A stretch of 20,000 nt of DNA, from NCBI GenBank assembly GCA_048213135.1, contig PS015217.1:131485-151484 (forward strand), in the 5' to 3' direction. A program made the translations under genes and the position numbers. This stretch comes from Reclinomonas americana ATCC 50394 (Eukaryota). Shown in pieces: positions 63 to 20,000 of the stretch; within the stretch, counting starts at the first letter, position 1; the number at the start of each line of letters is the position of its first letter. A model generated the notes under the pieces. That model was not told the DNA's origin. It ran no database searches and worked only from the letters and a program-made list of their open reading frames with translations.

Positions 63-3000
63 ACAACGTGATACCGTCGGCACCGACGTTGTCGACCAGC
101 TTGTACACTCCACCGCTCGCCGTGAATGGCATCATTGGAGCGCTGTCATCGAGCGATCCCAACACTGGCCAGACACTTGTGTTCTCCGTCGCGGGTGGCG
201 CGAATCAGGCGTCTTTTGTCATTACCGGCTCGAATCTGTGCTCGAATGTGGCGGGGTTGACCGGCAATGGTCTGCAGGTGTCGGTAAGCGTCAGCGACGG
301 TGCAGGTGGAGTCGCCAGTTCCATGTTCACCATTAGTGAGGGTGAGTCTCATGGCAGGCTATTGCTCGAGAGCGCCGTTGCGCTCATCTCTGGTGTGTGT
401 TTGTGTGCAGTGAACGTGCTGCCGACAGCTCCTGTTCTGTCGAGCAACCTGTTTGTGCCACCACTGCCGCTGAATGGCGTGATTGGCGCGCTATCGTCTG
501 TCGACCCAAACACGGGACAGATGCTGGTGTTCAGCATCACCGGCGGCACCAATGCAGCTCTGTTCAACATCAGCGGCTCGTCGCTACGGAGCAATGTGGT
601 GGGCCTGACGGGCTACAATCTGCAAGTGACGGTGCAAGTGAGTGACGGGGCGGGCGGCACGGTGAGCGCGATGTTCTCCATCAGCGAAGGTATGTACGAT
701 TTTCAGAATGTGGTGATTGGATTGTGCACGACCTCCTAACGCGCGTCCCATGTGCACAGGAAACGTGGCTCCGAGCAGCGTCAGTCTGTCGTCGTTGCTG
801 TACGATCCAACGCAACTGCCTCTCGCACTGGTCGGCACACTCAGCTGTGCCGACGTGAACACGGGGCAGACGTGCTCCTTCACTGTGCTCCCCACTGGCG
901 ACGGTATTCTGTTTCGAGTGACGAACGGCAATCAATTGTTTATCAGCAGCGCTACGGAGACGACCACGCCGCTCAGCGTCAGCATCCAGGCAACGGACAG
1001 CGGCGCCGTGCCACTGTCTTTCACGCAGCTGTTTACCATCAATGCTGGTGAGTCCGGCTCATGGCAGCGTGCTTCTTGTTTTTCCTAAAATACTCATTTT
1101 CTGTCTCTGTCCACCGCAGCCAATCTCCCGCCTACGGGTCTCACGCTCTCGTCGACTGACTATCGCCCGCCGCTGGCCCTGAACTCCGTGGTTGGCACGC
1201 TGTCGGCCACGGATGCCAACTGCTGCCAGACACTGACGTACCGGCTGGTGGGTGGCGCTGATCAGGCCAAGTTTGCGATTGTGGGCAATCAGCTGCGCAG
1301 CAACATGGCTGGTGGACTCACGGGCACAGGGTTGCAAGTGAGTGTGGAGGTGGCGGACGGTGCTGGAGGGACGCAGGTCAGGTCGTTTGTGGTTAACGAA
1401 GGTGCGAGGCGGAGAAGGGGAGATAAGGGAAAGGGGAAGAGGGACAGAGATAGAGAGGGAGAGAGACGGAGGGAAAGAGGAGAGGGGTGAAACGTGAAAT
1501 TACTTTCGTGGTTTCAATCTGTGGATAACTCAAGCAGAGTTAATGAGAGAGAGACAGAGAGTAACAGATAAAGGCAGTGTGAGAGAGAAAGCAGAATGAG
1601 ACATCGAATGAGGCATCGCGGGAAGGAGAGACAGATAGAAGCGTACAGCGTGAGAGAGAACCAAAAATTACCCGGGGAGAGAAACCAGAATGAGACATTG
1701 CCTGAGACAGCGTGGGAATGAGAGATAGAGAGGAGGGAGAGACATATAGATGCGTACAATGTGAGAGAGAAACAGAATGAACCAGAGAGAGTAATAACAG
1801 AATGTGACATTGCACGAGGCAGCAAGGGAAGGAGAGACTGAGAGGAGGGAGAGACAGGTTGACGCGGACAGCGTGTGAGAGAAAAGGAATGAAACCGAGA
1901 GAGAAAACAGAGTGAGACATTAAATGAGACAGCGAGGAAAGGAGGACAGAGGAGGGAGAGACAGATAGTCGCGCACATCTTGTGAGAGAAAAGAAATGAA
2001 ACCGAAAGGGGAATCGGAGTGAGACATTGAAGGAGACAGCGAGGAAAGGAAGACAGAGAGAGAGAGAGAGAGAGAGACAGAGATAGGCAGCGAGAGAGAG
2101 AGATGACAGAATGGGGCATTGTATGAGAAACGCAGCGACAGAGATGAGAGATATAAGATAGCTGCCCGTTTCCGTTGCTCTCTCGTTGTCAACTTCCCTC
2201 TCTAAACATTCTCCTGGCGCTGGTAATGCAGTGAATATCCCCTCCACTCGCATCGTACTCTCTGCCGCGACATATTCGCCGCCAACGGCGGCCGCCAATC
2301 AACTCATCGGCTCGCTTTCCACTGTGGATCTCAACTGCTGTCAATTGTTTTCGTACACGATTGCCGGCGGCGCAGACGCTGCGCTGTTCGACATTATCAA
2401 CGGCAACCAGTTGGTGCTGCGTCTGGCCGGTCAGCGTGGAAGCAACTTGTCGGTCACTATTCAGTCGACAGATAATGCCATGCCTGCGCTCTCGATGCAA
2501 CAATCGTTCAGCGTCAATGAGGGTGAGCTGTCTGGTTGTGGAACTTCGCATTTGATGTACGCTAATTCACCATCATTGCATGCAGTCAATGTGCCACCAA
2601 CTGACATTACACTGTCGTCGAACACATACGCGCCACCGACTGCGATGACTGGCGTCATTGTCGGCACGCTTTTGACGGTGGACGGCAACAGCAACGAGTC
2701 GTTCACGTACTCGGTTGTTGGCGGTGCTGCGGCTTCGTACTTTTCGATTGTCAACAACAATCAGCTGGCTCTCCTGCCGGTGGGACTGGTGGGCAATGGA
2801 TTCCGTGTGATTGTTCGTACTGCGGATCGATTTGGCGTCACGTTTGACAAGATGTTCACCGTGAATGATGGTGCGGAAGGAGGAGAAATGGGAAAGGGAG
2901 AGAGGGAGAGGGAGAGGGGAGAGTGGAGAGTGGAGAGTGGAGAGTGGGAGAGGGGAGAGAGAGGAAGAGGGAGACAGAGTGAGAGAGAGAGGAATGTGCC

Positions 3001-6000
3001 AACGGAAGAAGCTGCAACCTACGGTTTCCGCCTTGTATGATTTTGTCTTCATCCTTTCTTTCTCTTGCTCGCGTTTGTTGATATGGGTTTCGGTGGGTGT
3101 ATTTAGATTGTACTGTCATTCACTTCTCTCTCTCTCATGCGTCTGGCGTTCGAGCGTTGTTTGGTTGTATCGTGCTGTACATTTCCTGTTTTATTACTTG
3201 ATGGTGTTCCTGCTCGTTGATGTGATGTTGGTGGGCGTATCTGTTGCTCTGCTGTCTCACATTCTCGCTCCCTTCCGCTCCCGGGCATTCTTCTCCCTTC
3301 CATGGCCACTTCCGTCATGTGTTGAGCTTTCATCTGTTGTTTGTTCTTGTTGTACGGTTCCAGCTGCTCGCTCTTCTCTCATCAAATGTGCGTTGTATTC
3401 ACCTTCATCCTCGTACAGCCAATGTCCCACCCACCGACATGGCGCTGTCGACCAATGTCTACACGCCCAACTGGCCCCTTCCCAACCTGGTTGTCGGTGT
3501 GCTGTCAGTGACCGACGCCAACATTGCCGACACGTACACCTTTAGTGTCACCGGCGGCGCCGATGCTGCGAGCTTCACGATCAATGGCTCCTCCCTGGTC
3601 ACCCGTGTGGCTCGCGTCACCGGGAACAGGCTTGTTGTTGAAGTTACTGGCACGTGTGCGGCCAGCGGCGATGTTATTATGCGGACATTCACCCTGGATG
3701 AGAGTTTCGTGACTCGACGAGCCAGAGCTTGTTGCAGTAACATGCTCTGCTGACCTCTCTCTCTCTCTCTGTGCTTCCCAACACACAGGGAATGTGTTCC
3801 CCACCGCGGTGCAACTTAGCAACACGTCGTATGTGCCGCCTGGCACGACTGCCTACGTGGTTGTCGGCGCTCTGATGGCTGTGGACGACAACTGTTGTCA
3901 GACATTCACATTTACTGTGGTTGGCGGCATCGATGCCATGCGTTTCTACGTTGGCTCGGATTCGATGCTGTATCTGCGCTACGACACGACGATTGTGTCG
4001 CGACTGCAAGTGCAGCTTCAAGCGAGCGACGGACTGGGTGGACAATGCGTCAGCTCGTTCACCATATCGGAAGGTGCGTTCGAGAGATGGGTGATGGCAC
4101 GTCAGAGATGGTGGAGGGGGGAGAAGAGACGATCCTTTGTTTTCGGCCGCACTCTCACGCTAATTTTCTCCTTCCTTCACAGCCAATGTGCAACCGACGG
4201 ACATTTTGCTCTCATCATCGACGTACGTGCCGCGGATTGCCATCGGCAACATGATCATCGGCACGCTGTCGACGGTGGACGCCAATGTCGGACAGGATCA
4301 TGTGTATGCGGTGGTCGGCGGTGCCGCACAGGCTCAATTTACAGTGACAGCTTCCAACAAGCTGCTCCTTGTGCCGGCCAACGTCACCGGCAATGGACTG
4401 GAGGTGGTGGTGCGCACCACGGATGCTGCGGGTCTTGTGTTTGAGAAGACGCTCCTGATCAACGAAGGTGCGTCTCGATGATCCAAAGCTGTGCTTCCTG
4501 TACGCTAATGATGTGGGTGCATGCAGTCAACGTGCCTCCGTCGAACATCCGGCTGCTTCCCAACGCAACCTATACGCCCCCGACACTGGCATCTAACACG
4601 GTTATCGGTACACTGGCCACGGACGACGACAACACCAACGACACATTCACGTACACGCTGCTGGGTGGACCCTCTGCGTCCCTCTTCCGGATCATTAACG
4701 GCTCGACATTGGCGTTGCGCAACGCGCAGCAACGTGGCGCCCGGTTCACTGTCACAGTGCGCTCGACGGACTCGGGAGGGGCGTTCTTGGACAAAGTCCT
4801 GACTATCACCGATGGTGTGCGGTTTGGCGTTCACTTACTTTTGTGTTTGTGGATGTGTGCTTTGCTGATCGTTATCAATCTGGACAGTGCCTGTCGCGCC
4901 GACGGACATTCTACTGTCGAATGTCGTGTACACGCCGCCTGTTGCCCTGGTGAACACGCTAGTTGGCATCTTGTCGGCAGTGGACGGCAACACCGAGGAC
5001 ACGTTCACGTATGAGATTGTGCCGGGAATGGATGCGGTGAGTGTGGATGGAAGAGAAAGAAAAAAGAAGAAGAGAGGGCGACGATAGAGAGTCGAATTGG
5101 TGCAGAAGTACGAGAAAAAGGAAGAGTAGTCGATCAAGTGACAAGAGTGAGAGAGCAAGACAACCGACGATGTGCGACATATTGGATATGGGGGAAGAAG
5201 AAAGAAGAAGGGAGGGTGACGATAGAGAGTCGAACTGGCTGCAAGACTTCTACAAGAGAGGAAGAGTAGTCGATCAAGTGACAAGGGTGAGAGGGCAAGA
5301 CGCGAGAGAGTGCATATTGGGGAAGAAGAGAGAAGAGGAAGTGTTGCAAACAGGAAGTGTTGGAGCGAGGAAAGAGGACACGAGAGGTGAGTGAGAGATA
5401 GACAGTGAGCGGGAGAGTGACTGACGGGTTGGCGTTGTAAGAGAAGTGAGACAGTATCGGTGTGTTCCACTCATCTCTCTGTTCCACCCGTAGTCGCACT
5501 TTGACGTTATCGACGACCAGCTGGTGATGACGCAAATCGGTGACACCGGGACGCTGCGAGTGAGGATCACGGTCACGGATTCGACCGAGAATACGTTCAC
5601 CAAGCTTTTTGTGATCGGCGAGGGTGTGTCGAAGGAAACCCGACTCGCCAGTTCATCTTGCGTTATTCTCAATCCTGCACAGCGCATTTGATGCCCACGG
5701 CACTGACGATGAATCGCACCACTTTCCCACTGGGTCTCGCACTCGGCGGCACCATTGTCACCCTGCACACCGCCCATCCGAATTGCTGTGTCAGTCTGGT
5801 ATATTCGATTGTCGGAGGCGCGGATGTGGTTCGTGTTTTCGTGCATATTCTTCTTCGTTGGTCTTCGGATATTGCTCTCTTGCTCACTTCATGTGTGCTT
5901 GCAGGCCAAGTTCCGCATCCAAGGAGACAAGCTGGTGTCAGATGTGTCTCCGCTCGTTGGCATAAATCTGGAGGTGGTGATACAGACCGACGACCAGCAG

Positions 6001-6822
6001 GGTGGCGTGCTGCAGAAGACGTTTTTGATTTCCGAAGGTGATTTTGCATACCGCTTTGTGCGCTCCTCTGCAACTCATGGCACTCACCGGACATGTGGAT
6101 GCTTTCCTATTACAGAGGCCGTCGCACCCAGTGCGCTTTCCCTCTCGGCCACCACCTACGTGCCACGCACGCTGACACCCAACTATGTAGTTGGCACGCT
6201 GACGACCACCGATGCCAACTGCTGCGATTCGTTCACATATTCGATTCGGGGAGGCGGTCAGGCGGCCCTGTTCAACATTGCTGGCAACAAGCTGCGCTTC
6301 ACAAAGGAGAACATTGGCGGGCAGCCGCTGGAGGTGACGGTGCGCACGACGGATTCGGGCGGCTTGTGGTTGGAGGAGACCTTTTCCATCATGGAGGGTG
6401 AGTGCGATGCAACAAATGCTTGTCGATGCCACTTCTGCCGCTCATCAATGGCTGTCATGACAGCGAACGCGGTGCCGGTGGGCGTAGTGATTGAGCCACT
6501 GCTGTTCAAGGGGCCGGCGTCGCGGAATGGACTGGTGGGGCGTCTTCGTGCGCTGGATGCCAACTGCTGTCAGTCGCACACATTTACGCTGGTTGGCGGC
6601 GCTGCTCAGGTTCTTCATTGCCCTCTGCTGCTGTTTGCTTGTTCGTTTGTGATGATAAAGATCGCTGACCTTTGGCATGCGTGTTACAGGACAAATTCTA
6701 CATTGCTACCACGGAGCTGAGGGTGAATGTGGATCGATTGTCGGGCAGTGGGATGGAGGTGGTGATCTTGGTGGATGACGGGCAGGGTGGTCGAGTGAAC
6801 AGCACGCTGGTGATTGGAGAAG
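63..6822 (+). CDS. Gene 1 ectodomain: 14 tandem cadherin-like repeats (93-97 aa each)
   Basis: Recurrent motif NxxPTxxxLS..Y.PP....VGTLS..DxN...FTY.I.GGA.A..F.I.G..L.....L.V.V...D.GG......FTI.E. Each repeat spans 279-291 nt and is bounded by phase-1 introns. Confidence 0.88.
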
Positions 6823-7159
6823 GTGAGGAGAGGGAGGAGGAGAGGAAAGGGAGAAGGAGAGGGAGAGAAAGGAATGAAAGAGGGAGATGGGAGGGAGGGA
6901 GGGAGAGGAGAGGGAGGGAAAGGAGAGGGGAGAGGAGAGAGAGGGAGAAGGAGGGAAAGGGATGAAAGAGGGAGAGAGAGGAGAGGGAGGGCAAGGAGAG
7001 GGGAGAGGGGAGGGTGGGAATTGGAGAGGGAGAGAGAAGAGAGGGAGGGCACAGGAGAGGGAGAGGAGGCAAAATGCATGAGAATTGTGGAGGGGGAAGA
7101 CGAGGAGAGAGTGAGCGATCGGCGATGCAGGTGCTGATGCTCGTGTCAAAGTAGGATGA

Positions 7160-7194
<35 letters not shown>

Positions 7195-9343
7195 CAGCAG
7201 GAGGAGATGAGAACAACAAAGTGCGCAGCAGATAGAAGTTTGTCGCGGAAAGCAAGAGTTTGTTGATGTGTATCCGCTGTCTATGTTGAGGGATAGGTTA
7301 CCTGATTCCTCCTTGTGATGGAGATTGCGTCGACGTGCTTGGACGTGCCACTCACCCGCCACACACAGAGCCACCGCCGCCTCCGCCTCCTCCATCCGTC
7401 TCCCTCGCCCCCGGTGTGGCAACAAGTATTCCCTCCGGCACCACAACGCTGGCCACCAGCGTGGTGTATGCCAACTCGGGCAACTCAGTCAACTGGCTTT
7501 CCTCTGCCGTGATGACAACGAAAGTCAATGTGGAGCTGTGGGTGCTTGTGAATGGTGCGTTTGCTCGCTACTTGACATCGTGGATCAGAATAACTTCTGA
7601 TCCTTTCGCGTCACAGGCACCTTTGTAAAGGAAACCGAGTTGGCCAGTGGCGTGGACAGCACATTGTCGACGGCGGAGCTTGATGCGTCGTTAAAGACGG
7701 TGAAGGGTCTGGTGTCGTCGAGTGCCACGTTTAGGGTGGTGGTGACGGAGGCGTCGGCGAATGGCACGGTGGTGGGGTTGACGGATCCGTTTATGCTGAA
7801 ATGTTGAGGAGGGGGGAAGGGGAACGGGAAGGGGAAAAGAGAAGGAGGAAGGAGAAGGGGAGAAGAGGGATAGAAAGAAAGTGGAGAATGAGGCGGAAAC
7901 TTGTGGACGAGAATGCCGGTTTACAAAAGATAGGGAGAGTAAGTGCAGAGTTGTAGTGGCATTAAGATCAGGAAAGAGAAGAGAGAGGGCGGGGGGAGGA
8001 GGACGAAGAGAGACAGAGACACAGAGAGAGACAGGAAGTAAGAGAGTGAGAAAGGAGTTTAGTGGCAGAGGAGAGAGGACGAAGAGAGACAGAGACAGAG
8101 AGAGACATGAAGTAAGAGAGTGAGAATGGAGTCTAGTGGCAGAGGGGAGAGAGAAATGAGAGAGAATAGATGAGCGAAAGCACAGAGAATCGAGAGAGAG
8201 CTTAAACAGGGTCTCGAAAGCTGAGAAATAGAGGGTCATCACAGACGGTTGTGCGGGGACTAAAGGTGAGGAAAGATAAAGACAGAGAAAGAGACTTGGC
8301 AGGGATCCAATGTACAGAACAAGAAACGGAGAATTTATTGGGGAATGGAGCGAGATTGTGCGGAACGTGAGTGGAGCAGGAGAGCGCGAGAAGCATAGTT
8401 GCTCAATGGGAAGAGAAAGGCATCGAGCGAGTGACTGCGCACTCACTGCTTTCCTTCACCGTTGCAGATCCGAGCATTGCAAGTCGTGCATCGGCCACAC
8501 AGACGGAACCAGCGTCGGTCAGTGACCCGCTGTTTGTCACATGGATTTGTGACGGACCGCCCAAGGCCACCAACTTTACCATTAGCGTGAGTCTTGCATG
8601 GCCATCCGATAGAATAGCGTCAGTCGTCCCTCACCGCAAGATACAGTTGCAACAACGGTCCAACTCTGGTGGCTCGCTCGTGTCACTTGGGCGTGTGGCG
8701 ACTCATGTGCTCGGCGCTTGTACTGCTGGTGCCAGCTCCACGGTCTCGACATCGCGTGATGCAATCAGCGGCACAGCCGCCGAGCTGGCTCGTGCGTTGA
8801 ACGGCACCAACACGGCTGCGCTGACGCTGTCCTCGAGTGCCAGTGGGCTGAGACTGCAGAGTGGTACGGACTACGTGTTCGAGGTGACGCCAGAGGTCGA
8901 CGATGTGTCGTTGTATGACATCTCGCCGACGTCGGCGTTTCGAGTGTTTGGTGAGTGGCGGAAGGGGGGCAGGGTGTGGTGGAGATGATCGGTGNNNNNN
9001 NNNNNNNNNNNNNNNNNNNNNNNNNNNNNNNNNNNNNNNNNNNNNNNNNNNNNNNNNNNNNNNNNNNNNNNNNNNNNNNNNNNNNNNNNNNNNNNNNNNN
9101 NNNNNNNNNNNNNNNNNNNNNNNNNNNNNNNNNNNNNNNNNNNNNNNNNNNNNNNNNNNNNNNNNNNNNNNNNNNNNNNNNNNNNNNNNNNNNNNNNNNN
9201 NNNNNNNNNNNNNNNNNNNNNNNNNNNNNNNNNNNNNNNNNNNNNNNNNNNNNNNNNNNNNNNNNNNNNNNNNNNNNNNNNNNNNNNNNNNNNNNNNNNN
9301 NNNNNNNNNNNNNNNNNNNNNNNNNNNNNNNNNNNNNAGAGAG

Positions 9344-9417
<74 letters not shown>

Positions 9418-10141
9418 ATGTGAGAGAGAGAGATGTGGTGTTTGGCGAGAGAAGGAGTGGAGGCAGAGATGGAAGTTAATGAGCAAGTGCACCTCGTTTG
9501 TGAGGAGATCCCGCGAGTGTTTGTGGACGTGCAAGACCTGAGTAGTGCAGCAGTCGTCTGAGTGTTAATTTTGTGGCATTCGGATCATGCTTGCAAGTGA
9601 CCTGTCATTTTACTTGTTGTAGTTTTCATGTCTGGCTTGCTTGCACCACAGATCCCACCTCCGTGTTCGCGACTTCCACGTGCCCATCCTCCATTCGATG
9701 CTGGTACTGGATTGCGCTGATGGCCGCAGGTGGCACTCTGCTGTGCATGATCACCACCTGCTGCTTCATGTTTGCCTGCTACCGCCGCCGGCAACGGCGT
9801 CGTGTCGGGGGTGCAAAACTCGGTCCGGGTGCCGGCTGGCTGCTGGATCGTGATGTGAGTTTTGTGCAGTTTGTCGTGTCGCCCAGTCTGTGGTGTGCTC
9901 GACGTGCTGGTCAAAAGGCGGATGCAAAGGCAATCACCACGCTGACGATGATTGATTTGCCGGGAACACGTTGCGCGCGAATCCGTGCTGTGCAGCTCAG
10001 CCTGCGTTTCGCTCACCTGCAATATTCACAGCCATCAATGCCGCCACTGCGCCGCTACCTCGTTGCGTCTCCTTCCAATTGACACTGCTTTCTGCATCTC
10101 TGAGATTTCGTCCAGAACTCCCTTGACATCATGTGAGATGA

Positions 10142-10172: not shown

Positions 10173-11555
10173 TTGTCTGTCTTCTACTTTCTGTCTCTTT
10201 TTGTTTCTCTCGCCTGTCTATTTCACTCTTTGTTTCTGTCTCCTCGCGTTGAGCTTGACTCCTAATTGCTTCTACCTGTCCTTGCTGCAGCGCTCTCACC
10301 GTCAGCCACTTCCCCAACATCGCCGCCGGCAAAGAATCCCGCCATCCACTTCTTTAGCCCTGTTCCACCACCACCCTTGCCGCCCCAACTGCCTTCACCG
10401 TCGTCATCACCGTCGGCGAGCGCTGTGTCGTCAGACAGCGTGCACGTGCTCATCGATGCGCCGCGACAGCCCGTATTGCGACTGCCGAACCTGCCGACGC
10501 TGTCGCAGTTTACGATGCTCACTGGCATTCGATTGCCGCCGCCTCCTGGGCGGCCTCCAATGTCATTGTCCACTCCTGGGCTGGTGCCTCGGTTGCCTTT
10601 TGCGTTCACACATAATCGCAGCTACATGACGCTGACGCCGCCACCGCCTGTGCGTCCTCCGCCGCTAGTGGCGGCATCAACCGAGAGTGAGCCGCGTGAG
10701 TTGCGAGGACCGGCAAAGGTGGAAGCGGATTCTGCTGGCGCGGCGGAGATGCCACAACTGCCGTCACCGCCGCGACGTACCTCGCTGCTGTTGCCATCGC
10801 TGCCGGTATGTGTGCGGAGTCAAGGGGAAGAGGAGTGAGACAAATTTGTGGGAATCGAAGCCGATAGCAGGCCCGCTTTGCTTCACGAGACTCCTCTCCA
10901 CCTGTTCTTTGTTCTGCAACAGAACTACTGCTTGCCCCTCCCACACAGAGACGCATTGTTGTTCATTTGTGCGGATCACTAAGTAATGGTCTCACAGGTG
11001 GGGTCGATGGCTTTGCCAAGGAGGATTCGGTCACCGTCGGTCATGGGTGCGATGGCGGTCGCGTTGCAGAAGCGGCTGCAGTCGTCGGCGTCGCCTGGTG
11101 TTGCAAATCTCTTGCCGCATCCAGTCGATAGACGATTGCCACGGATGAGCGAGTTATGCCTGTCGCTGCCGCTGCCGCCACCCCCGCCGCCTCCATTGCC
11201 ACCAGTTGAGTATGTTTGTGATGTGAGGCAGACACGAAGCAGAGAGTGGTTTGTGTGTCCAGAGTTTGACGACGGGTGGTGCACAGATTCCACTTCCTTT
11301 GTCGCGCGGAGGAGAGACGACAAAGGCACTGGGAGCTCGGCGACCGGGCTTGTCGCTGCAGATGGCTGTGCCGTTGCCGCGAGCGCGGGTTTGTTATTCC
11401 TTGTTTCTGATATCGAGTGGTGTGGGGCTGTTGATGACAGACCGGTGTCTGTGCAGCTTCAAAGGACGCAGCTGGCAGAGTCGAGTACGGTCGTGACGAT
11501 CGAGCAAGAGCGCCGAGTGGGTGGACGAGAGCAAGAGGCGGAGTTTTGCGAATGA
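63..11555 (+). CDS. Gene 1 (5'-partial): spliced type I transmembrane protein with cadherin-like repeats and a proline-rich cytoplasmic tail
   Basis: Manual GT-AG exon chain that keeps one frame to TGA 11553-11555: 63-341, 411-689, 760-1047, 1120-1401, 2232-2522, 2586-2870, 3419-3703, 3789-4073, 4183-4467, 4527-4814, 4888-5036, 5494-5623, 5683-5828, 5905-6037, 6116-6397, 6464-6609, 6690-6822, 7369-7554, 7617-7802, 8468-8586, 8647-8950, 9652-9854, 9918-9969, 10032-10061, 10291-10805, 10998-11204, 11287-11388, 11457-11555 (~1990 codons). Repeat exons are confident. Exons after 9854 are less certain, and exons could hide in the gap at 8995-9337. Confidence 0.85.
1578..2060 (+). repeat. Degenerate ~110-bp purine-rich tandem repeat in intron 1402-2231
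   Basis: Units begin GTGAGAGA at ~1578, 1650, 1761, 1875 and 1982. They share GA[A/G]TG[A/T]GACAT, and the middle units share GAGGAGGGAGAGACA. Confidence 0.7.
5060..5330 (+). repeat. Direct duplication (~138-bp period) in intron 5037-5493
   Basis: GACGATAGAGAGTCGAA occurs at 5080 and 5218; GGAAGAGTAGTCGATCAAGTGACAAG occurs twice. Confidence 0.8.
6823..7075 (+). repeat. Polypurine (G/A) low-complexity tract at an intron 5' end
   Basis: About 250 nt almost exclusively G and A. Confidence 0.85.
7369..8950 (+). CDS. Gene 1 membrane-proximal region: EPPPPPPPPS linker plus two non-cadherin beta-sandwich-like domains
   Basis: Exons 7369-7554, 7617-7802, 8468-8586 and 8647-8950 splice in frame. 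Both domains show V.W...V/F.I/V.L ... Y/F.V/F.V ... P/A-F; the 60-nt intron 8587-8646 is inferred from GTGAGT...CTCAC...CAG. Confidence 0.65.
8995..9337. other. Assembly gap (N run)
   Basis: Ns in the sequence. Confidence 1.
9338..9407 (+). repeat. (GA)n microsatellite flanking an assembly gap
   Basis: Directly visible AG dinucleotide run. Confidence 0.95.
9652..9854 (+). CDS. Gene 1 transmembrane exon
   Basis: CAG acceptor at 9649-9651. It encodes WYWIALMAAGGTLLCMITTCCFMFACY (9702-9782) followed by a basic stop-transfer RRRQRRR, then a GTGAGT donor at 9855. Confidence 0.8.
9918..11555 (+). CDS. Gene 1 proline/serine-rich cytoplasmic tail exons
   Basis: In-frame exons encode PVPPPPLPP, LPPPPGRPP, TPPPPVRPPP and LPLPPPPPPPLPP, ending EQEAEFCE*. 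Confidence 0.65.
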
Positions 11556-12015
11556 CCATCTCACTTGCACCTTGAGATAATACAGGAGGGCTCTCGAAAT
11601 TTGATCGATCGCATTCGCGAGTGTGACTGCAACACTGATTTCGCAGCATGCCGTGGTCGTCTCAGTGCCTGGATGGTCACGCGGACGTGCGTCATTTTTC
11701 CAGGTTTATTGAAAGTGCACGCACAAGATTCACGCAAGTGACATGCTCTTCTGCATTTGTGCACTCCACTGCAATGGGTTTCCGAAGAGGTCAGCTTCAC
11801 ATTGATTTCCAGACGAATTTGAAGTGGATTTTCAGCGCGCATGTGTTGTCTTTGGAGTGCTTCTGGTCCTCCACGCAACCGACACTCGTGGGCATTCTCT
11901 TCGCTGATATTGATCGCTGGGCCTCCACTGAGAAGCATGGGTCGAAGAAAAATTAGACTTGTGCAACCAATTTTCCAATTGGCCGATTGGTCATCCAACA
12001 AGTCCGACCCCCTGC

Positions 12016-12759
<744 letters not shown>

Positions 12760-12918
12760 GAGCGCCTCCTTTCTTTTCACGCCTTTCGCACTGAACACAC
12801 ACAAAGACACACACGCGTGCGCATTCATACGTGCCTCAGAGTCAAGCAGTGTGAGAGTGCGGGAAAATAGAGGCATCTCTTCTTTCATCGTCATTTTTTT
12901 CAGTCTTCGAGCCGCGAC

Positions 12919-15900
12919 ATGCCCAAGTGTGACTCTTCTGCCCATTCGCTCATGTGCCCTCGCCGCCGCCATCACTCGCGCGCGTCGCCGTGGGCTTGCG
13001 CAATGATATTGACTTTTGCTGTTGGCTTCCTCTCGCTGGCGCATGGCGCGAGTGCCACTGTTCCTCCAAGTTGCGTGTGCGACTGTGCGTGTGTGTACCT
13101 TGGTATGTGTCTCTCGATGTGTGTGCGCGCGACCGTTTTTTTGCAATTGGCAGAAATGTGTGTGTTTTGGGGTCATGAGTGCGTTCGCGGGGGGTGGTGT
13201 CAAATCTAGACATGCACATTTGTGTGCGCCGGTGCGTGCATTTGTGAGTGCGGTGGTGCGCTGAATGCAGTGTCGATGAGAGCACGCGCGCGCATGTGAG
13301 AGAGAAATCGAAATTTATCATCCATTTCTTCTCTCACGCACGCACATTTTCTCTCTGTCTCGCACGCACTCTCTGTCTCACTCTCCTCCACGCTCGCACT
13401 CTGAGCAGAAAGGGGAGAATGGTGCTTTTATGTCAAGTGCATTGCCTCACTCGCACTGTCTCACTCACACACTCGCTCTCCCTCTTTGTACACACGCAGT
13501 GTGCAGCAGCGGCAGCCAGCCAACCACGTACTGGGCAAGTGCGACGCTCGCTGTCGGTACCTGCACTGGCACATGGACGACCATTCTCAACTCCACAGCG
13601 GCTGCGCTGTGTGCCACCAACTACTGGATCTGTTCCTACACAGATGCTGCGCCAAACGCACTTGGTTTGGTCGACTACACCCAGGCCATCGCGGTGGCTG
13701 GCTGCTTTGCGTACCGCGCGGCTGATGACGGTGGAACATGCAAGCAGCTCAACTTCTCCGACAGCAATGCCAATGAAGTCGCTGGCATTGGCGCCCAGTG
13801 CTCGTGAGTGCCGTTCCTCTGTCTCCTCACCCCCGCCTCTGTTCCTCCCTCTCTTGCCCCCGCCTCCGTCTCTCCTCTCTCTCTCCCCCGCTCCGTGTCT
13901 CCTCCCTCTCTCGCCCCCGCTCCGCGTCTCCTCTCTCGCCCCCGCTCCGCGTCTCCTCTCTCGCCCCCGCTCCGCGTCTCCTCTCTCGCCCCCGCTCCGC
14001 GTCTCCTCTCTCGCCCCCGCTCCGCGTCTCCTCTCTCGCCCCCGCTCCGCGTCCTCCTCCCTCCCCCGCGCCGTGTCTCCTCCTCTCTCGCCCCCGCTCC
14101 GCGTCTCCTCCCTCTCCCCCCCCCCCGCTCCGCATCTCCCCCCTCGTCCCCGCTTCGTCTCTCCTCTCGCCTTCAATGTCTCCTCCTCTCGCACCGCCCT
14201 CCATTCTGCCGTGCTTCGCACTCGTCCATCCCCCTCTCTGAAACCAGTGCCTTCCGCATTTCATGCCGTCTCATTTATTGTGCATGCAGAGCTCAAGGAG
14301 CCACGGCAACCAGTTGCTTCGGATCGGGCCTCGGTCGCATCGATTACGCCCAATCGAGCGCGAGCGGCGCCCGAAATACCGGTTTCTCGCCTGGTGGCGT
14401 TGTTTGCTGCGGACCGGCCACCAACAGCGCTCCTACGGACATCAGCTTGAGTTCTGCGACATATGTTGCTCCCTCGGTCGCGGGAGTTGTTGTGGGCACG
14501 TTGTCGACCACCGATCCAGACCCGATCGACACCAGCTTTACATACACCATCACGGGAGGCGCCAATGCAGCCAACTTTTCAATCTCGTGCGTCTGTGCCT
14601 GCCTGTGTAATCACTTATTTCGGCTGCGTGTGCTATTTGCCACTAACTCCGTACGCTCCCTGATCCGTGCAGAGGCTCGACACTGTCCATCGTCACTGCG
14701 GGCCTCACGTCGACGTCGTTGTCTGGTGACGTTACGCTCCATGTGAGGCATCTTTATCATTGGGCGACTCATTGTTATTGCGCTGTCTAGTAACTGTGAC
14801 GGCCAACGACGGCAAAGGAGGAACGTTTGCAAAAGCGTTCACCATACCCTCCATCAATAATGCGCCTACGGCGATCACGTACCTGGGTGCTCCGTGGTAT
14901 CTGGGCCCAACGCCGACTGCTGGGTATTTGGTCGGCGTCTTGTCGACGACAGATGTAGACTCGCAGCAGTCGTTCACATATGCCATTGTCGGCGGTGCGA
15001 ACGCATCAAACCTATCCATTGTCGGAAACAGTCTCTACATCAAGAATAATGGACAAAATGGCAATCTGGTGGTCAACATTCAAGTGACGGACAATGGCGT
15101 GCCTCCGCAGTCGTACACTCAGTCATTTACGCTAACTCGTTGCGTTCATTCTTCGCCTTTTTCTGTTCACATGTATTTTGAGCCTCATCACCCACGTGTG
15201 CCTCAGCAAACACCGCTCCGTCCTCTCCGACATTGACGCCAACGACATATCCTCCTCCGCTAGCCTTGAACGGAGTGATCGGCACACTATCTGCAACGGA
15301 TGTGAACTCTGGACAGACTCTCTCGTACACGATTACGGGTGGCACCAACGCTGCGTCATTCAACATCAGTGGCACGAGTCTGCGATCGAATGTTGCTGGC
15401 CTCACTGGCAATGGCCTGCAAGTGATTGTGCAAGTGAGTGACGGAGTTGGTGGAACAGCAAGTGCGACATTTACCATCAACGAAGGTCAGTGTGCGATGA
15501 AGCTGTAGCTGTTATGGTTTACGATTTACCGTTTTCTGCAGTCAATGTTGCACCTTCTGCACCGACGCTGTCAAGCAACACGTACGCGGCGCCTCTCGCC
15601 ATGAATGGCGTGATCGGCACGTTATCGTCGACGGATGGGAACACCGGGCAGACACTGACATACACGATTACCGGTGGCACGAACTCGGCGTCGTTCAACA
15701 TCAGCGGCACGAGTCTGCGATCGAATGTGGCTGGCCTCACTGGCAATGGCCTGCAAGTGACTGTGCAAGTGAGCGACGGAACGTTGACAGCGAGCACCAC
15801 GTTCACCATCAACGAAGGTGCTTTTTTGTTCATTGTCTCCTTCTTGGTCAGTTCTTTGCCTACGCGACGCTCAACGCGCCATGTCACTATGCAGTTAATA

Positions 15901-18900
15901 TTGCGCCAACTGCGCCGACGTTGTCGAGTAGCACCTACACGCCGCCGCTAGCCTTGAACGGAGTGATTGGCACGCTGTCGTCAACTGATCCGAACACTGG
16001 TCAGACACTGACATACACAATTACGGGTGGCACGAACTCTGCGTCGTTCAACATCAGCGGCACGAGTCTGCGATCGAATGTGGCAGGTCTCACGGGCAAC
16101 GGCCTGCAAGTAATTGTGCAAGTGAGTGACGGAGCAGGTGGGACGACAAGCACCACGTTCACCGTCAACGAAGGTCAGTGTGAATTTGCGGTGTCTGTCT
16201 GCACCGATGTCATTCCCCGGCGTTCGGTCACCTCAACCGTGCCATGTTTATGTGCAGTCAACGTTGCACCAACTGCGCCCGCTCTCTCGAGCAACACCTA
16301 CACACCGCCGCTAGCCTTGAACGGAGTGATTGGCACGCTGTCGTCCACCGACCCCAACACTGGCCAGACACTGACATACACCATCACGGGCGGCACCAAC
16401 TCGGCGTCGTTCAACATCAGCGGCACGAGTCTGCGGTCGAATGTTGCTGGCCTCACTGGCAACAATTTGCAAGTGGTTGTGCGCGTGAGTGATGGAACTT
16501 TGACGGCGACGACAACCTTCACCATCAGCGAAGGTCGGTGTGAAGTGCGTGAATGGCTTTCTGTGAATGTGCTCACAGATCCTCTTATGTTTGTGTTCAG
16601 CCAACGTTGCGCCGACTGCACCAACTCTATCCAGCAGCACTTACACACCACCACTGGCGTCCAATGGAGTGATTGGCACGCTGTCGTCCACCGATCCAAA
16701 CACTGGTCAGACACTGACGTACACGATTACGGGTGGCACGAACTCTGCGTCGTTCAACATCAGCGGCACGAGTCTGCGGTCGAATGTTGCAGGTCTCACT
16801 GGCAATGGCCTGCAAGTGATTGTGCAAGTGAGTGACGGAGCAGGTGGGACGACAAGCACAACATTCACCATCAACGAAGGTCAGTGTGAGATGAAGCTGC
16901 AGCTGTGCTGGATTGCGATTCACCGTCCTCTACAGCCAATGTTGTACCAACTGCGCCCGCGTTGTCGAGTAACACCTACACACCGCCGCTGGCGTCCAAT
17001 GGAGTGATTGGCACGCTATCGTCCACAGATCCGAACACTGGTCAGACACTGACGTACACAATTACGGGAGGCACGAACTCTGCGTCGTTCAACATCAGCG
17101 GCACGAGTCTGCGCTCGAATGTGGCTGGCCTCACTGGTAACAATCTACAAGTCATTGTACAAGTGAGCGACGGAGCAGGTGGTACAGCGAGCTCAACGTT
17201 TACAATCAGCGAAGGTCAGTGTGATATGAGGCTGTTGCTGCTGTGATGAATTGTGACTCACCGTCCTCTACAGCCAATGTCGTTCCGACTGCGCCCGCGT
17301 TGTCGAGTAGCACGTACACTCCTCCTCTTGCCTCGAACGGAGTGATTGGCACGCTGTCGTCAACTGATCCGAACACTGGTCAGACACTGACATACACGAT
17401 TACGGGAGGCACGAACTCTGCGTCATTCAACATCAGCGGCACGAGTCTGCGGTCGAATATTGCAGGTCTCACTGGCAACAATCTACAAGTCATCGTACAA
17501 GTGAGCGACGGAGCAGGTGGGACAGCAAACACAACATTCACCATCAACGAAGGTCAGTGTGAGATTAGGCTCTTGCTGCAGTGCTGGTTTATGACTCACC
17601 GTCCTCTGCAGCCAACATTGTACCGACTGCGCCCGCGTTGTCGAGTAGCACCTACACTCCTCCTCTCGCATTGAACGGAGTGATTGGCACGCTGTCGTCC
17701 ACCGACCCCAACACTGGCCAGACACTGACGTACACGATTACGGGTGGCACCAACTCGGCGTCGTTCAATATCAGCGGCACGAGCCTGCGATCGAATGTTG
17801 CAGGTCTCACGGGCAACAATCTGCAAGTAATCGTGCAAGTCAGCGATGGGGCAGGCGGCACGGCGAGCACAACATTTACCATTAGCGAAGGTGTGTATAA
17901 TTGTGCCGAAATTATTCCTGGCGTGCAGCACGGTCAACTTACCATGTCTGTGAGCAGTCAACGTTGCGCCAACTGCACCGACACTGTCGAGCAACACGTA
18001 CATTCCTCCTCTTGCCTCGAACGGAGTAATTGGCACTCTGTCGTCCACCGATCCGAACACTGGCCAGACACTGACATACACAATTACGGGTGGCACCAAC
18101 TCGGCGTCGTTCAATATCAGCGGTACGAGTCTTCGATCCAATGTTGCTGGCCTCACCGGCAATGGCCTGCAGGTGACTGTTCGCGTCAGTGATGGAACGC
18201 TGACGGCGAGTACAACGTTCACCATTAGCGAAGGTCAGTGTGAGATGAAGCTGCAGCTGTGCTGGATTCTGTCAGAACTCACCGTCCTCTACAGCCAATG
18301 TTGTACCAACTGCGCCCGCGTTGTCGAGTAACACCTACACACCGCCGCTGGCGTCCAATGGAGTGATTGGCACGCTATCGTCCACAGATCCGAACACTGG
18401 TCAGACACTGACGTACACAATTACGGGAGGCACGAACTCTGCGTCGTTCAACATCAGCGGCACGAGTCTGCGCTCGAATGTGGCTGGCCTCACTGGCAAT
18501 GGCCTGCAAGTCATTGTACAAGTGAGCGACGGAGCAGGTGGGACAGCAAGCACGACTTTCACCATTAGCGAAGGTCAGTGTGTTTGATGAAGATCTGAAG
18601 CTGCTGCTGTGATGAATTGTGACTCACCGTCCTCTACAGCCAATGTCGTTCCGACTGCGCCAACGCTGTCGAGCAACACCTACACACCGCCACTCGCATT
18701 GAACGGAGTAATTGGCACGCTGTCAGCAACAGATGTAAACACTGGCCAGACACTGACNNNNNNNNNNNNNNNNNNNNNNNNNNNNNNNNNNNNNNNNNNN
18801 NNNNNNNNNNNNNNNNNNNNNNNNNNNNNNNNNNNNNNNNNNNNNNNNNNNNNNNNNNNNNNNNNNNNNNNNNNNNNNNNNNNNNNNNNNNNNNNNNNNN

Positions 18901-20000
18901 NNNNNNNNNNNNNNNNNNNNNNNNNNNNNNNNNNNNNNNNNNNNNNNNNNNNNNNNNNNNNNNNNNNNNNNNNNNNNNNNNNNATACACGATTACGGGAG
19001 GCACCAACTCGGCGTCGTTCAACGTCAGCGGCACGAGTCTGCGGTCGAATGTGGCTGGCCTCACTGGTAACAATCTACAAGCCATTGTTCAAGTGAGCGA
19101 CGGAGCAGGTGGTACAGCGAGCACTACATTCACCATCAGCGAAGGTTTTGTTTCATTGTCTCCTTCCTTCTCAGCTCTTTGTCTGTACGGCGCTAAGCTT
19201 GTCGTGTCTATGTGCAGTCAATGTTGCGCCAACTGCACCCACTCTCTCGAGCAACACCTACGTACCGCCGCTGGCGTCCAATGGAGTGATTGGCACACTG
19301 TCGTCCACCGACCCCAACACTGGCCAGACACTGACGTACACCATCACGGGAGGCACGAACTCGGCGTCGTTCAACATCAGCGGCACGAATTTGCGATCCA
19401 ATGTTGCTGGCCTCACTGGCAATGGCCTGCAAGTGACTGTGCAAGTGAGTGACGGAACATTGACAGCGAGTGCGACATTCACCATCAGCGAAGGTCAGTG
19501 TGAGATGAAGCTGCTTTTCTGCTGGATTATAACTTATCGTTATCCACAGCCAATGTTGCGCCGAGTGCGCCCACTGTCTCGAGCAACACCTACACACCGC
19601 CGCTGGCGTCCAATGGCGTTATCGGCACACTGTCGTCCACCGATCCGAACACTGGTCAGACACTGACGTACACGATTACGGGTGGCACCAATTCGGCGTC
19701 GTTTAACATCAGCGGCACGAATTTGCGATCCAATGTTGCTGGCCTCACCGGCAATGGCCTGCAAGTGACTGTGCAAGTGAGTGACGGAACATTGACAGCG
19801 AGTACAACCTTCACCATTAACGAAGGTCAGTGTGAGATGAAGCTGCTTTTCTGCTGGATTATGACTTATCGTTATCCACAGCCAATGTTGCACCGAGTGC
19901 ACCGACACTGTCGAGCAGCACCTACACACCGCCGCTGGCGTCCAATGGAGTGATTGGCTCGCTGTCGTCCACAGATCCGAACACTGGCCAGACACTGACA
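12919..20000 (+). CDS. Gene 2 (3'-partial): secreted/surface cadherin-like repeat protein, paralog of gene 1
   Basis: In-frame ATGs at 12919, 12952 and 13003; signal peptide MILTFAVGFLSLAHGASA. Exons: start-13069, 13500-13803, 14290-14586, 14673-14725, 14791-15138, 15207-15485, 15542-15817, 15895-16173, 16258-16533, 16601-16879, 16936-17214, 17274-17552, 17612-17890, 17958-18233, 18295-18573, 18640-(gap)-19144, 19218-19493, 19550-19825, 19882->20000. Splice phases are compatible throughout. Confidence 0.85.
13500..14410 (+). CDS. Gene 2 N-terminal cysteine-rich module (~140 aa, 10 Cys)
   Basis: Exons 13500-13803 and 14290-~14410 give CSSG...GTCTGTW...AALCATNYWICS...GCFAYRAADDGGTC...VAGIGAQCS...TSCFGSGLGRID...GGVVCC. 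Confidence 0.75.
13880..14130 (+). repeat. 25-bp C-rich minisatellite (CTCCTCTCTCGCCCCCGCTCCGCGT)n in gene 2 intron 13804-14289
   Basis: About five perfect units at ~13905-14055 (TCCGCGTCTC recurs at 13921, 13946, 13971, 13996, 14021) plus degenerate flanking copies. Confidence 0.92.
15207..20000 (+). repeat. Tandem array of at least 14 near-identical exon+intron units (~330-365 bp) in gene 2
   Basis: Exons are 276 or 279 nt with the near-invariant core GQTLTYTITGGTNSASFNISGTSLRSNVAGLTGN. Many introns begin GTCAGTGTGAGATGAAGCTG or a close variant. Confidence 0.95.
18758..18983. other. Assembly gap (N run) inside a repeat exon
   Basis: Ns in the sequence. Confidence 1.

Follow-up and report, generated by a model that had tools for sequence, protein, structure and literature searches.

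Tandem genes for cadherin-like repeat proteins built from phase-1 exon modules, with a candidate calcium-ligand-poor repeat subtype

Organization of the Locus

The window analysed here, a stretch of 20,000 nucleotides, covers parts of two genes on the + strand, the 3′ part of gene 1 (63–11555) and the 5′ part of gene 2 (from 13003 to beyond 20000); the 5′ end of gene 1 is cut by the window edge, and gene 2 is still open at the window end. Exon tables and alignments agree with the original prediction that these are two co-oriented paralogous genes for giant membrane proteins composed of cadherin-like repeats. Together they encode 30 repeats (14 in gene 1 and 16 in gene 2) of about 92 residues each, and all modelled introns possess GT–AG borders (Table 1).

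In three repeats of gene 1, an extra phase-0 intron divides the exon, the two parts adding to 279 nt in each case; these repeats form no common group in the domain tree. Downstream of the stalk, the hydrophobic 19-mer of the transmembrane exon, with a Kyte–Doolittle 19-residue maximum of 1.95, is followed by the basic stop-transfer stretch RRRQRRR. The tail (10291–10805 plus 10998–11210) has a proline fraction of 0.24, 23 PxxP motifs, and four proline runs of at least four residues. The 3′ end of gene 1 is uncertain: an open reading frame at 10983–11555 runs to the stop codon at 11553–11555, which terminates gene 1 provided that no intron lies beyond 10998. In the stalk, transmembrane, and tail exons, no Pfam family scored over the cut-off. 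The Pfam scan of the tail exon at 10293–10805 gave no family at E ≤ 1 and found neither a catenin-binding domain nor another known tail domain, in which this proline-rich tail differs from those of the classical and giant metazoan cadherins.

In the signal-peptide-like N-terminus of gene 2, hydrophobicity over 12 residues peaks at residue 1 (2.29). A second in-frame ATG is located upstream of the gene 2 start, at 12919. The head exon had no homologue among proteins of 176–2000 aa and no Pfam match, and its comparison with the Atlas gave only a weak match (0.92, recognition under the usual level). Rfam and tRNA scans detected no non-coding RNA genes, and a comparison of the long introns for a common element family returned GA-type low-complexity matches only.

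Table 1. Positions of the modelled features of the two genes and of the region between them
Feature	Position	Strand	Remarks
Gene 1, repeats 1–14	63..6822	+	exon table with AG/GT flanks, open frame, alignment A1, translations
Gene 1, single-exon repeats (n = 11), first part	63–341, 411–689, 760–1047, 1120–1401, 2232–2522, 2586–2870	+	
Gene 1, single-exon repeats (n = 11), rest	3419–3703, 3789–4073, 4183–4467, 4527–4814, 6116–6397	+	
Gene 1, split repeats (n = 3)	4888–5036+5494–5623, 5683–5828+5905–6037, 6464–6609+6690–6822	+	extra phase-0 intron
Gene 1, membrane-proximal stalk, ~265 residues	7369..8950	+	spliced translation without stops
Gene 1, stalk exons	7369–7554, 7617–7802, 8468–8586, 8647–8950	+	opens with an eight-proline run
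Gene 1, transmembrane exon	9652..9849	+	hydrophobic 19-mer IALMAAGGTLLCMITTCCF, then MFACYRRRQRRR
Gene 1, proline-rich cytoplasmic tail	10291..11555	+	exon 10291–10805 and exon from 10998
Intergenic region	11556..13002	.	(CA)56 at 12018–12130; assembly gap 12135–12743
Gene 2, exon 1	13003..13102	+	start ATG 13003; signal-peptide-like N-terminus MILTFAVGFLSLAHGAS...
Gene 2, cysteine-rich head, ~150 residues	13500..14422	+	exon 13500–13803 and first part of exon 14290–14586
Gene 2, divergent repeats (n = 2)	14423..15138	+	starts ~14423 and 14856, no intron at either
Gene 2, introns within first divergent repeat	14587–14672, 14726–14790	+	
Gene 2, array of 14 single-exon repeats	15207..20000	+	276 or 279 nt each; last unit cut by window end
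Gene 2, array unit starts 1–7	15207, 15542, 15895, 16258, 16601, 16936, 17274	+	
Gene 2, array unit starts 8–14	17612, 17958, 18295, 18640, 19218, 19550, 19882	+	
Assembly gap within one array unit	18758..18983	.	flanks of 118 + 161 nt give a 279-nt exon

Fold and Relatives of the Repeats

An AlphaFold2 model of the repeat (pLDDT 95.8, pTM 0.84) contains six β strands by DSSP. Among the Foldseek matches listed against the PDB, 39 of 42 were cadherin-superfamily ectodomains, with TM-scores to the query of at most 0.75 and a best E-value of 2.7e-3, none reaching 1e-3. A profile of 24 repeats retrieved 20 PDB sequences at E ≤ 1, of which 15 are named cadherin, protocadherin, or CELSR (best E 8.7e-4), and hhalign matched alignment A1 to a T9SS protein, which itself matches PF00028 at E 1.6e-119, with a probability of 98.7%, an E-value of 3e-16, and 38% identity over 91 columns. 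Scored repeat by repeat, none of the 24 repeats reached a Pfam gathering score; at E ≤ 0.1, PF00028 was matched by two of them and Big_9 by 11. From the structural model, the repeats are predicted to adopt the cadherin β-sandwich fold, and the label “cadherin-like” denotes remote homology and predicted fold, without a Pfam match. A search with two array repeats among proteins of 372–2000 aa yielded no close relative (best identity 35–40%), and in tblastn searches of the window with the 41 top matches and with P0192, P0263, P0264, and P0266 as queries, nothing but the repeats was matched.

The locus combines tandem repeats (14 and 16) with a signal-peptide-like N-terminus in gene 2 and, in gene 1, a transmembrane segment downstream of the repeats. 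The giant metazoan cadherins (FAT, Dachsous, cadherin-23, protocadherin-15, and CELSR) likewise carry long strings of cadherin folds on a single-pass membrane protein and supply the best PDB fold and profile matches to the window repeats. However, their sequence match is weak, the best PDB cadherin profile domain scoring about 20 bits; nine oyster Fat4-like domains had a mean score of 21.5 bits versus 40.6 bits for all 3010 domains present in an initial set of 262 collected proteins, mostly of bacterial type. By score, bacterial cadherin-domain proteins are the closest sequence relatives, with 17,608 representatives at E ≤ 1e-3; the top-scoring matches that have a name are Bacteroidota and other bacterial proteins with PF00028. 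Such adhesins of the T9SS and RTX types have the core motif VGTLS.TD....T.TY.I.GG....F.I.G..L. in common with the window repeats, and in them, as in the window array, near-identical tandem repeats make a long extender; for RTX adhesins, tandem, even identical, β-sandwich repeats are reported to be employed as extenders (PMC7493085 and PMC4083281). In contrast to the bacterial adhesins, the window genes contain spliceosomal introns and encode a predicted eukaryote-type signal peptide, a transmembrane helix, and a proline-rich tail.

Loss of Calcium Ligands

The bacterial-type repeats retain acidic calcium ligands, whereas most of these are missing from the window repeats. The canonical ligand motifs are the E11-type Glu, DxE/DRE, DxD, and the DxNDN-type linker. 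At four columns, namely the E11-like position, the linker D/E, the Glu of DxE, and the second Asp of DxD, acidic residues occupy 89, 66, 83, and 91%, respectively, of 2520 bacterial-type domains; the corresponding values are 0, 0, 14, and 0% for the 14 repeats of gene 1 and 0, 0, 0, and 8% for 13 repeats of gene 2. The Asp columns 32 and 79 are retained in the window repeats (93–100%). Judged by these columns, the window repeats constitute a cadherin-like subtype without most of the canonical Ca2+-binding acidic residues. A EukProt transcript carrying the label GGOE01002849 has the same subtype, as do three unnamed proteins. A tree calculated for 114 domains places the window repeats and four eukaryote-like proteins on one side of a branch with an SH-aLRT value of 95, a side that includes none of the 70 bacterial-type domains. 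A literature search confined to cadherin-like proteins and Euglena gave an unrelated paper and no prior description of the subtype. Because most of the Ca2+-ligand residues are gone, a rod assembled from these repeats may not need calcium, a suggestion taken from the residue loss only. Calcium-free linkers are reported for some giant cadherins of Metazoa (PMC5120219 and PMC8325961), whereas here the replacement of the ligands extends to every repeat or almost every one and is not confined to a few linkers.

Repeat Exons and Their Divergence

Single exons of 276, 279, 282, 285, 288, or 291 nt encode 25 of the 30 repeats, all multiples of three, as originally predicted. Phase-1 introns occupy the homologous linker codon at 29 places, of which 15 belong to gene 1 and the other 14 to gene 2, and bound 28 of the 30 repeats, among them all 14 of gene 1, in line with the approximately 28 that had been claimed; this count includes the last gene 2 repeat, whose 3′ side lies beyond the window; two repeat starts are intronless. 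A repeat exon of this frame-symmetric class (1-1) could, as also proposed earlier, be skipped or duplicated with the reading frame kept, and only the junction residue would change. The inter-repeat introns of gene 2 are of phase 1 and 56–84 nt long, with a unit period of about 332–363 nt (TRF on the array: period 338 × 10.2 and 332 × 2.4), and eight of the 13 are mutually alignable at 0.815 identity. Since introns and exons are both homologous between units, the duplicated unit was the exon plus its intron. As the units arose from each other by duplication, the regularities of the repeat exons are inherited rather than independent and offer no coincidence for a test against chance. The arrays would have grown by tandem duplication of exon and intron, a unit of about 335–360 nt, each copy retaining the ancestral intron site within the linker codon, and the layout of one repeat per exon with phase 1-1 borders is the ordinary footprint of exon duplication.

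In the class 1-1 modules of the Patthy framework and the Ig/FN3 arrays of titin and related proteins, an extracellular domain likewise corresponds to one phase-1-flanked exon of 3n length, and arrays likewise grow by duplication of exon plus intron. PMC8001218 poses the question of why exon shuffling is confined to Metazoa. Contrary to exon shuffling in this framework, duplication here is found within and between two paralogues only, with no transfer into unrelated genes; furthermore, the module is cadherin-like, and the host may not be an animal. The locus provides a clean example of amplified class 1-1 exons, perhaps in a non-animal.

The 12 complete gene 2 units show 83–97% protein identity to a reference unit, and DNA identity between units is 73–95%. 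Over their 66 pairs, the mean dS is 0.762 and the mean dN 0.070 (ratio 0.092), and identity at codon positions 1, 2, and 3 is 0.918, 0.931, and 0.623. The amino acid is invariant at 62 of about 92 codon columns, 51 of which contain more than one synonymous codon, and no stop codon occurs in any of the 30 repeats. The gene 2 array is old and has been held nearly invariant in protein. As the original prediction stated, the gene 1 repeats near the 5′ edge match this array: those at 63–341 and 411–689 have 71% and 72% protein identity to a gene 2 unit and 63–71% identity in DNA. Identity to the array unit is 36–61% for gene 1 repeats 3–13 and 39% for the gene 2 repeat at 14856.

Splicing of the Repeat Exons

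Frame symmetry had led to the proposal that the exons are cassettes whose regulated skipping or choice gives many isoforms of different length or composition, making the locus a protist counterpart of the Dscam or clustered protocadherin systems. All 25 single-exon repeats and the three split pairs are indeed 3n in length with phase-1 borders, so that skips stay in frame; the splice sites of the array are nearly alike, so that a donor could in principle join any later acceptor; and the gene 1 repeats 3–13 are divergent enough that skipping there would alter composition. However, exon duplication alone yields symmetric exons, and no alternative splicing is needed for them. The gene 2 units are almost one protein, and their high identity and low dN/dS (0.09) imply that exon choice could alter length but hardly composition.

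In Dscam1, the alternative exons are versions of the same domain, one of which is selected with docking/selector RNA pairing, and in the clustered protocadherins, a separate promoter serves every variable exon, which codes for a complete ectodomain together with the transmembrane segment. The window resembles both systems in having tandem paralogous exons for adhesion-type domains on a putative surface receptor. Contrary to Dscam1, consecutive exons here encode consecutive whole domains, nearly identical in protein, and not alternative forms of one domain. Contrary to the clustered protocadherins, each exon encodes one repeat, the 56–84-nt spacers leave no promoter space, and the transmembrane segment and tail are encoded by separate, unique 3′ exons of gene 1. 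A search for docking/selector pairing in 13000–20000, which detects pairings of at least 14 nt and not weaker ones, found 15 inverted-repeat pairs with arms in exons, exon borders, or intron 1, none of which links two array introns. The short introns and this lack of intron–intron pairing leave neither a docking/selector layout nor room for per-exon promoters. Intron retention would keep the frame for one of the 13 inter-unit array introns (16174–16257, 84 nt), the only one both 3n in length and stop-free. In addition, a survey of 65 eukaryotes (PMC6142364) reports that exon skipping outside animals is rare and shows no enrichment of frame-preserving exons, which is relevant if the host is not an animal. 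As a splicing-diversity system, the locus would matter greatly; the evidence goes against a diversity generator of this kind, which we consider improbable.

Recombination and Copy Number

The flanks of the assembly gap at 18758–18983 abut in register within one unit, so that the unit count of the array is provisional and whole units may be missing. Ungapped sliding 100-nt windows identified 44 tracts with at least 93 matches per window, of which the most alike (16911–17188 versus 18270–18547) is 95.0% identical over 278 nt and joins non-adjacent units four apart. Because synonymous divergence is high and even this tract is just 95.0% identical, the array has not been recently homogenised, which argues against the frequent unequal crossover envisaged in the original prediction (dS 0.76, third-position identity 0.62). 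In a PHI-like test, neighbouring-site incompatibility was 0.511 against a shuffled mean of 0.551, a value as low being obtained in 48 of 2000 shuffles, and 55% of the informative site pairs fail the four-gamete test. The weak mosaic signal, the 95% tract, and the in-register gap are compatible with some recombination between units.

These same observations bear on a locus of variable copy number, in which unequal crossover or gene conversion would change the unit number between strains and so tune the length of a surface rod. A gap exactly in register is what collapsed or polymorphic repeats would give, and the shared tract, the shuffling test, and the four-gamete failures point in the same direction. 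However, the gap may stem from read length only, repeated mutation would likewise produce four-gamete failures at such divergence, and with the mean dS and the 73–95% DNA identity given above, a long identical recombination substrate is absent, the 95.0% tract being the best of 44. Variation of this kind is on balance unlikely. An assembly artefact or a decaying pseudogene could be suspected in a draft assembly with three N gaps, one of them in the array, but is hardly credible for a locus with open frames and intact GT–AG borders in all 30 repeats and a dN/dS of 0.09; moreover, the units differ at 5–27% of bases and so are not copies from one collapsed read pile. Unit counts of such arrays in draft assemblies are not to be trusted.

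Proposed Architecture and Implications

Based on the gene structure, fold, and selection pattern, we think it probable, with room for doubt, that tandem duplication of exons gave rise here to rod-like surface proteins, with constitutive splicing and a uniform extender rod. Each gene would encode a giant type-I surface protein, possibly with an adhesive or receptor role and with an ectodomain made of many cadherin-fold β-sandwiches in a row. The gene 2 array, assumed to be constitutively spliced, would form a uniform and perhaps rigid extender or rod carrying the cysteine-rich N-terminal head far off the membrane. In gene 1, the divergent membrane-proximal repeats, the stalk, one transmembrane helix, and the proline-rich tail would join the rod to the cell interior; the complete arrangement of head, uniform array, divergent repeats, stalk, transmembrane helix, and tail is a composite of the two genes, unseen in one. 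A binding role of the head at the tip is guessed from its position, as it belongs to no recognisable family. Near-identical adjacent domains are thought to risk misfolding (PMC4660218), and the tolerance of such neighbours by the gene 2 array is a point against the extender-rod reading. Such domains, usually thought to be selected against, have here been preserved for a long time by strong purifying selection.

A broader proposal can be offered only tentatively. The repeats may represent a eukaryotic (protist) cadherin-like subtype missed by current domain models, with the signature Y-x-P-P for the E11 region, D-x-N for D-x-D, and N-V-x-P in the linker, in which calcium-stiffened linkers were given up. 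With bacterial adhesin repeats as nearer relatives than the cadherins of animals, the subtype would perhaps be of bacterial-type descent and would have become a class 1-1 exon module amplified to at least 14 nearly identical copies, the protein held by selection and the synonymous sites almost saturated. If true, the locus would provide a non-animal example of the exon-module growth held to be typical of animal surface proteins, as well as a natural case of tolerated identical adjacent domains. A Pfam-invisible, Ca2+-ligand-poor subtype also bears on the origin of cadherin-like adhesion modules and on the number of them overlooked in protist annotations.

Gene Organization and Repeat Exons

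Exons were identified by a screen for repeat-coding segments that are preceded by AG, followed by GT, and open when read as “2 nt + codons + 1 nt”, and they were joined by coordinates into two gene models on the + strand. No stop codon occurs within either model (1,895 residues for gene 1; 1,333 and 277 residues on either side of the gap for gene 2), every modelled intron has GT-AG borders, and position 1 of the window falls within a gene 1 intron. The window comes from a draft assembly of a eukaryote and has a G+C content of 0.52-0.60 outside three N runs (8995-9337, 12135-12743, and 18758-18983), and tRNA and Rfam scans of the window found neither tRNA genes nor Rfam families. A perfect intergenic (CA)56 microsatellite (12018-12130) adjoins the gap at 12135-12743, beyond which a further CA repeat is present. 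A second in-frame ATG is located 84 nt upstream of 13003 (12919-13005), the use of which would make the hydrophobic segment of gene 2 internal rather than N-terminal.

Coordinates of the features of genes 1 and 2 and of the array introns
Feature	Position	Strand	Remarks
Gene 1 repeats (n = 14)	63-6822	+	
Gene 1 repeats with Asn-Cys-Cys	1120-1401, 2232-2522, 3789-4073, 5683-6037, 6116-6397, 6464-6822	+	
Gene 1 stalk	7369-8950	+	Eight prolines at its start
Gene 1 hydrophobic exon	9652-9849	+	Single hydrophobic 19-mer, then RRRQRRR
Gene 1 tail	Stop at 11553-11555	+	Frame open up to stop
Gene 2 start ATG	13003	+	Signal-peptide-like N-terminus
Gene 2 head		+	Cysteine-rich, ~150 residues, after signal-peptide-like N-terminus
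Gene 2 repeats		+	After head, two divergent repeats, then near-uniform array (n = 14) running past window end
Array introns with second GT	15486, 16174, 16534, 16880, 17215, 17553, 18234, 18574, 19494, 19826	+	

The original prediction had described about 28 repeats of frame-preserving length between phase-1 introns, and the screen recovered the same exons, with 28 of the 30 repeats bounded in this way. The phase-1 introns (n = 29; gene 1, 15; gene 2, 14) lie at one linker codon (E-x|x-N), and 25 repeats are encoded by a single exon of 276, 279, 282, 285, 288, or 291 nt, while the first two gene 2 repeats are without an intron at their starts (~14423 and 14856). The predicted match between the repeats of the two genes was likewise confirmed, gene 1 repeats 1 and 2 sharing 71% and 72% protein identity with a gene 2 unit. 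The regularity of the repeats does not represent many separate coincidences. The exon-intron period is 338 nt in 10.2 copies (TRF), and eight of the 13 array introns align together at an identity of 0.815; since homology among the units extends to introns and exons alike, the exon plus its intron was duplicated and the phase was carried along. The arrangement of one domain per exon with phase-1 borders is described as the class 1-1 module in the exon-shuffling literature (PMC8001218); in contrast to such shuffling, the window shows amplification inside two paralogues and no shuffling into other genes. An extra phase-0 intron is found at one common alignment column (after G-G-x-x-x) in three gene 1 repeats (introns 5037-5493, 5829-5904, and 6610-6689), each exon pair totaling 279 nt, and these three repeats show no common grouping in the domain tree.

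Cadherin Fold and Closest Relatives

The gathering score of any Pfam family was reached by none of 24 repeats; at E<=0.1, Big_9 was matched by 11 repeats and Cadherin by two, all below that score. A cadherin fold is indicated by the agreement of a PDB profile search, structural modelling, and a feature search. The profile of the 24 repeats retrieved 20 PDB sequences at E<=1, 15 of which are named cadherin, protocadherin, or CELSR (best E 8.7e-4). When the AlphaFold2 repeat model (pLDDT 95.8) was compared with the PDB by Foldseek, cadherin ectodomains accounted for 39 of the 42 matches listed, with TM-scores of up to 0.75 and a best E of 2.7e-3, none being <=1e-3, and the Atlas feature search with two gene 1 repeats as the query listed Cadherin-family clusters. 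At the sequence level, the strongest relatives are bacterial. With a cut-off of E<=1e-3, the repeat profile matched 17,608 representative proteins; in a search with two array repeats, the named proteins among the best matches are Bacteroidota and other bacterial proteins with PF00028. One of them, P0172, possesses PF00028 (E 1.6e-119) and a T9SS signal domain, and aligns with the repeat profile at an hhalign probability of 98.7% and 38% identity. In fold and layout, the window proteins are similar to giant animal cadherins, and in sequence to bacterial cadherin-domain adhesins. By the criteria for cadherin repeats, they lack the Ca2+ motif and stay under the Pfam threshold.

A Calcium-Ligand-Poor Subtype

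The first 262 collected proteins were re-scored with an HMM of A1, the alignment of window repeats, which gave a domain average of 40.6 bits. The top single domains (94 and 82 bits) both belong to P0192, a protein of 2,199 residues in which Pfam Cadherin was not found at E<=0.001, and P0192 as the query retrieved three relatives, P0263, P0264, and P0266, with 36-43% identity. P0264 bears the EukProt label GGOE01002849.1.p1, the accession prefix of which is given as denoting Euglena longa transcripts (bioRxiv 10.1101/573709). The repeats are the sole part that these four proteins (the P0192 group) have in common with the window. In the four proteins, the repeats are followed by a cysteine-rich stretch that is C-type-lectin-like by eye and has no Pfam hit, and then by Big_5 (from a Pfam run for P0192 and precomputed in the database for P0263 and P0266), more repeats, and a conserved C-terminus (...FMQGCCAD...); their genes are seemingly intron-less on their contigs.

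All domains were aligned to the HMM, and acidic residues were tallied at four ligand columns. The replacements in the window repeats and the P0192 group are Pro, Val, Leu/Gly, and Asn, and two Asp columns are retained in all groups.

Domains with an acidic residue at four ligand columns (bacterial-type, every other collected protein, most without a name)
Group	Domains	E11-like	Linker D/E	E of DxE	Second D of DxD
Bacterial-type	2,520	89%	66%	83%	91%
P0192 group	21	0%	0%	29%	0%
Window gene 1	14	0%	0%	14%	0%
Window gene 2	13	0%	0%	0%	8%

A quick maximum-likelihood tree of 114 domains was built from all 14 gene 1 repeats, 4 of the 13 gene 2 repeats, 21 P0192-group domains, five oyster Fat4-like domains, and 70 bacterial-type proteins drawn at random and represented by one random domain each. 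A branch with an SH-aLRT of 95 has all 39 rows of the window and the P0192 group on the same side; the tree is based on only 91 columns, and the signature columns contribute to the split. This tree supports the grouping of the window repeats with the P0192 group as a distinct subtype. The residues at the ligand columns suggest that Ca2+ binding has been lost in the window repeats, which would then be Ca2+-independent; calcium-free linkers have been reported in some animal cadherins (PMC5120219, PMC8325961). In six of the 14 gene 1 repeats, Asn-Cys-Cys (D-x-N-C-C-Q) is found where the gene 2 repeats have D-P-N-T-G-Q; this loop is the counterpart of the DxD calcium site, and a vicinal Cys pair there is unusual.

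Age of the Array and the Proposed Diversification

The 12 complete gene 2 units show 83-97% protein identity to the reference unit and 73-95% DNA identity. Nei-Gojobori analysis of their 66 pairs gave a dS of 0.762 and a dN of 0.070 (ratio 0.092), identity at codon positions 1, 2, and 3 is 0.918, 0.931, and 0.623, and more than one synonymous codon is used in 51 of the 62 amino-acid-invariant codon columns. High dS, low dN, and invariant residues with varied codons thus identify the units as old copies, the protein of which has been held almost fixed. Neighboring domains in tandem-repeat proteins are described as usually divergent in sequence (PMC4660218); in this array, neighbors that are nearly identical are tolerated. 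Adjacent units are not more similar to each other than distant ones, the most alike tract reaches 95.0% over 278 nt (16911-17188 versus 18270-18547; ungapped sliding-window count), and a PHI-like test gave a weak signal, with 48 of 2000 shuffles as low as observed. There is little sign of recombination between units, and the pattern argues against unequal crossover at high frequency and against homogenization in recent time; occasional events may have occurred. At 18758-18983, the assembly gap interrupts an array unit in register, its flanks of 118 and 161 nt making up one 279-nt exon, and whole units may be missing there, so the copy number counted here is provisional.

The original prediction had further proposed that skipping, duplication, or swapping of these exons could diversify the proteins in the manner of Dscam or protocadherins, and this proposal was not supported. 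Among the defining features of the Dscam-type and clustered-protocadherin systems that are open to testing, the locus shows none. Because the gene 2 units are nearly fixed in protein, choice among them cannot yield compositional variety. The array introns are 56-84 nt long, none of the 15 inverted-repeat pairs found in 13000-20000 joins two array introns, and the intron at 16174-16257 is the only one of the 13 between array units that combines a 3n length with the lack of a stop. According to a survey of 65 eukaryotes, which bears on this locus only if its host is not an animal, exon skipping outside animals is uncommon and shows no enrichment of frame-preserving exons (PMC6142364). Splicing of the repeat exons is probably constitutive.

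Intron and Splice-Site Features

Among the array introns (15486-19881), the eight that align together form one family, type-A, which starts with GTCAGTGTGAGATGAAGCTG and ends with ...ACTCACCGTCCTCTACAG. In the eight units, the identity of type-A interiors is 0.777 versus 0.625 at third codon positions of the adjoining exons, a comparison biased by the choice of type-A for likeness, and in 27 of 28 pairs the intron value exceeds that of the exon. Identity at fourfold, amino-acid-invariant sites is 0.60 over all 38 sites, 0.56 over the 25 with CpG context, and 0.69 over the other 13, and CpG decay therefore accounts for only part of the intron-exon gap. The gap may stem from constraint on introns of such short length, or from a pressure on the repeats to differ at synonymous sites. 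A second GT lies 6 nt past the donor in ten of the 13 array introns (GTCAGT|GTGAGA), and its use would preserve the frame and lengthen the linker by two residues; linker-length homology with other repeats favors the first GT as the probable donor. Ten of the 12 complete array exons (15207-19825) contain an internal GTGAG(T/C) at Q/R-V-S-D codons, which resembles a strong donor, although its phase (0) means that splicing there would shift the frame. On the sense strand, the long gene 1 introns (1402-2231, 5037-5493, 6823-7368, and 7803-8467) have a purine content of 73-77%, and they contain minisatellites rich in GA (units of 107, 138, 73, and 74 nt in 4.2, 2.1, 3.3, and 2.1 copies, respectively), whereas gene 2 intron 13804-14289 has the opposite bias (18% purine; 25-nt unit x 12), and comparison of the two revealed low-complexity similarity only.

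Proposed Architecture and Function

Genes 1 and 2 are most likely paralogues of one architecture, seen as its 3' half and 5' half, respectively, and the proposed order is a composite of the two. A signal peptide would be followed by a cysteine-rich head, for which no recognizable family was found in gene 2, and by a long run of uniform repeats with the cadherin fold; the repeats nearer the membrane would be more divergent, and a stalk, a single TM helix, and a tail rich in proline would complete the protein. Such a protein would be located at the cell surface and may function in adhesion, and the uniform run, which is probably rigid, would serve as an extender holding the head far from the membrane. 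This role may be likened to that of the repetitive beta-sandwich regions of bacterial RTX adhesins, which are likewise described as extenders (PMC7493085, PMC4083281). The tail of gene 1 is 24% proline and contains 23 PxxP motifs. PxxP motifs and proline runs are docking sites for SH3-, WW-, or EVH1-type partners, and their occurrence in this tail suggests that partners of these types may dock there.
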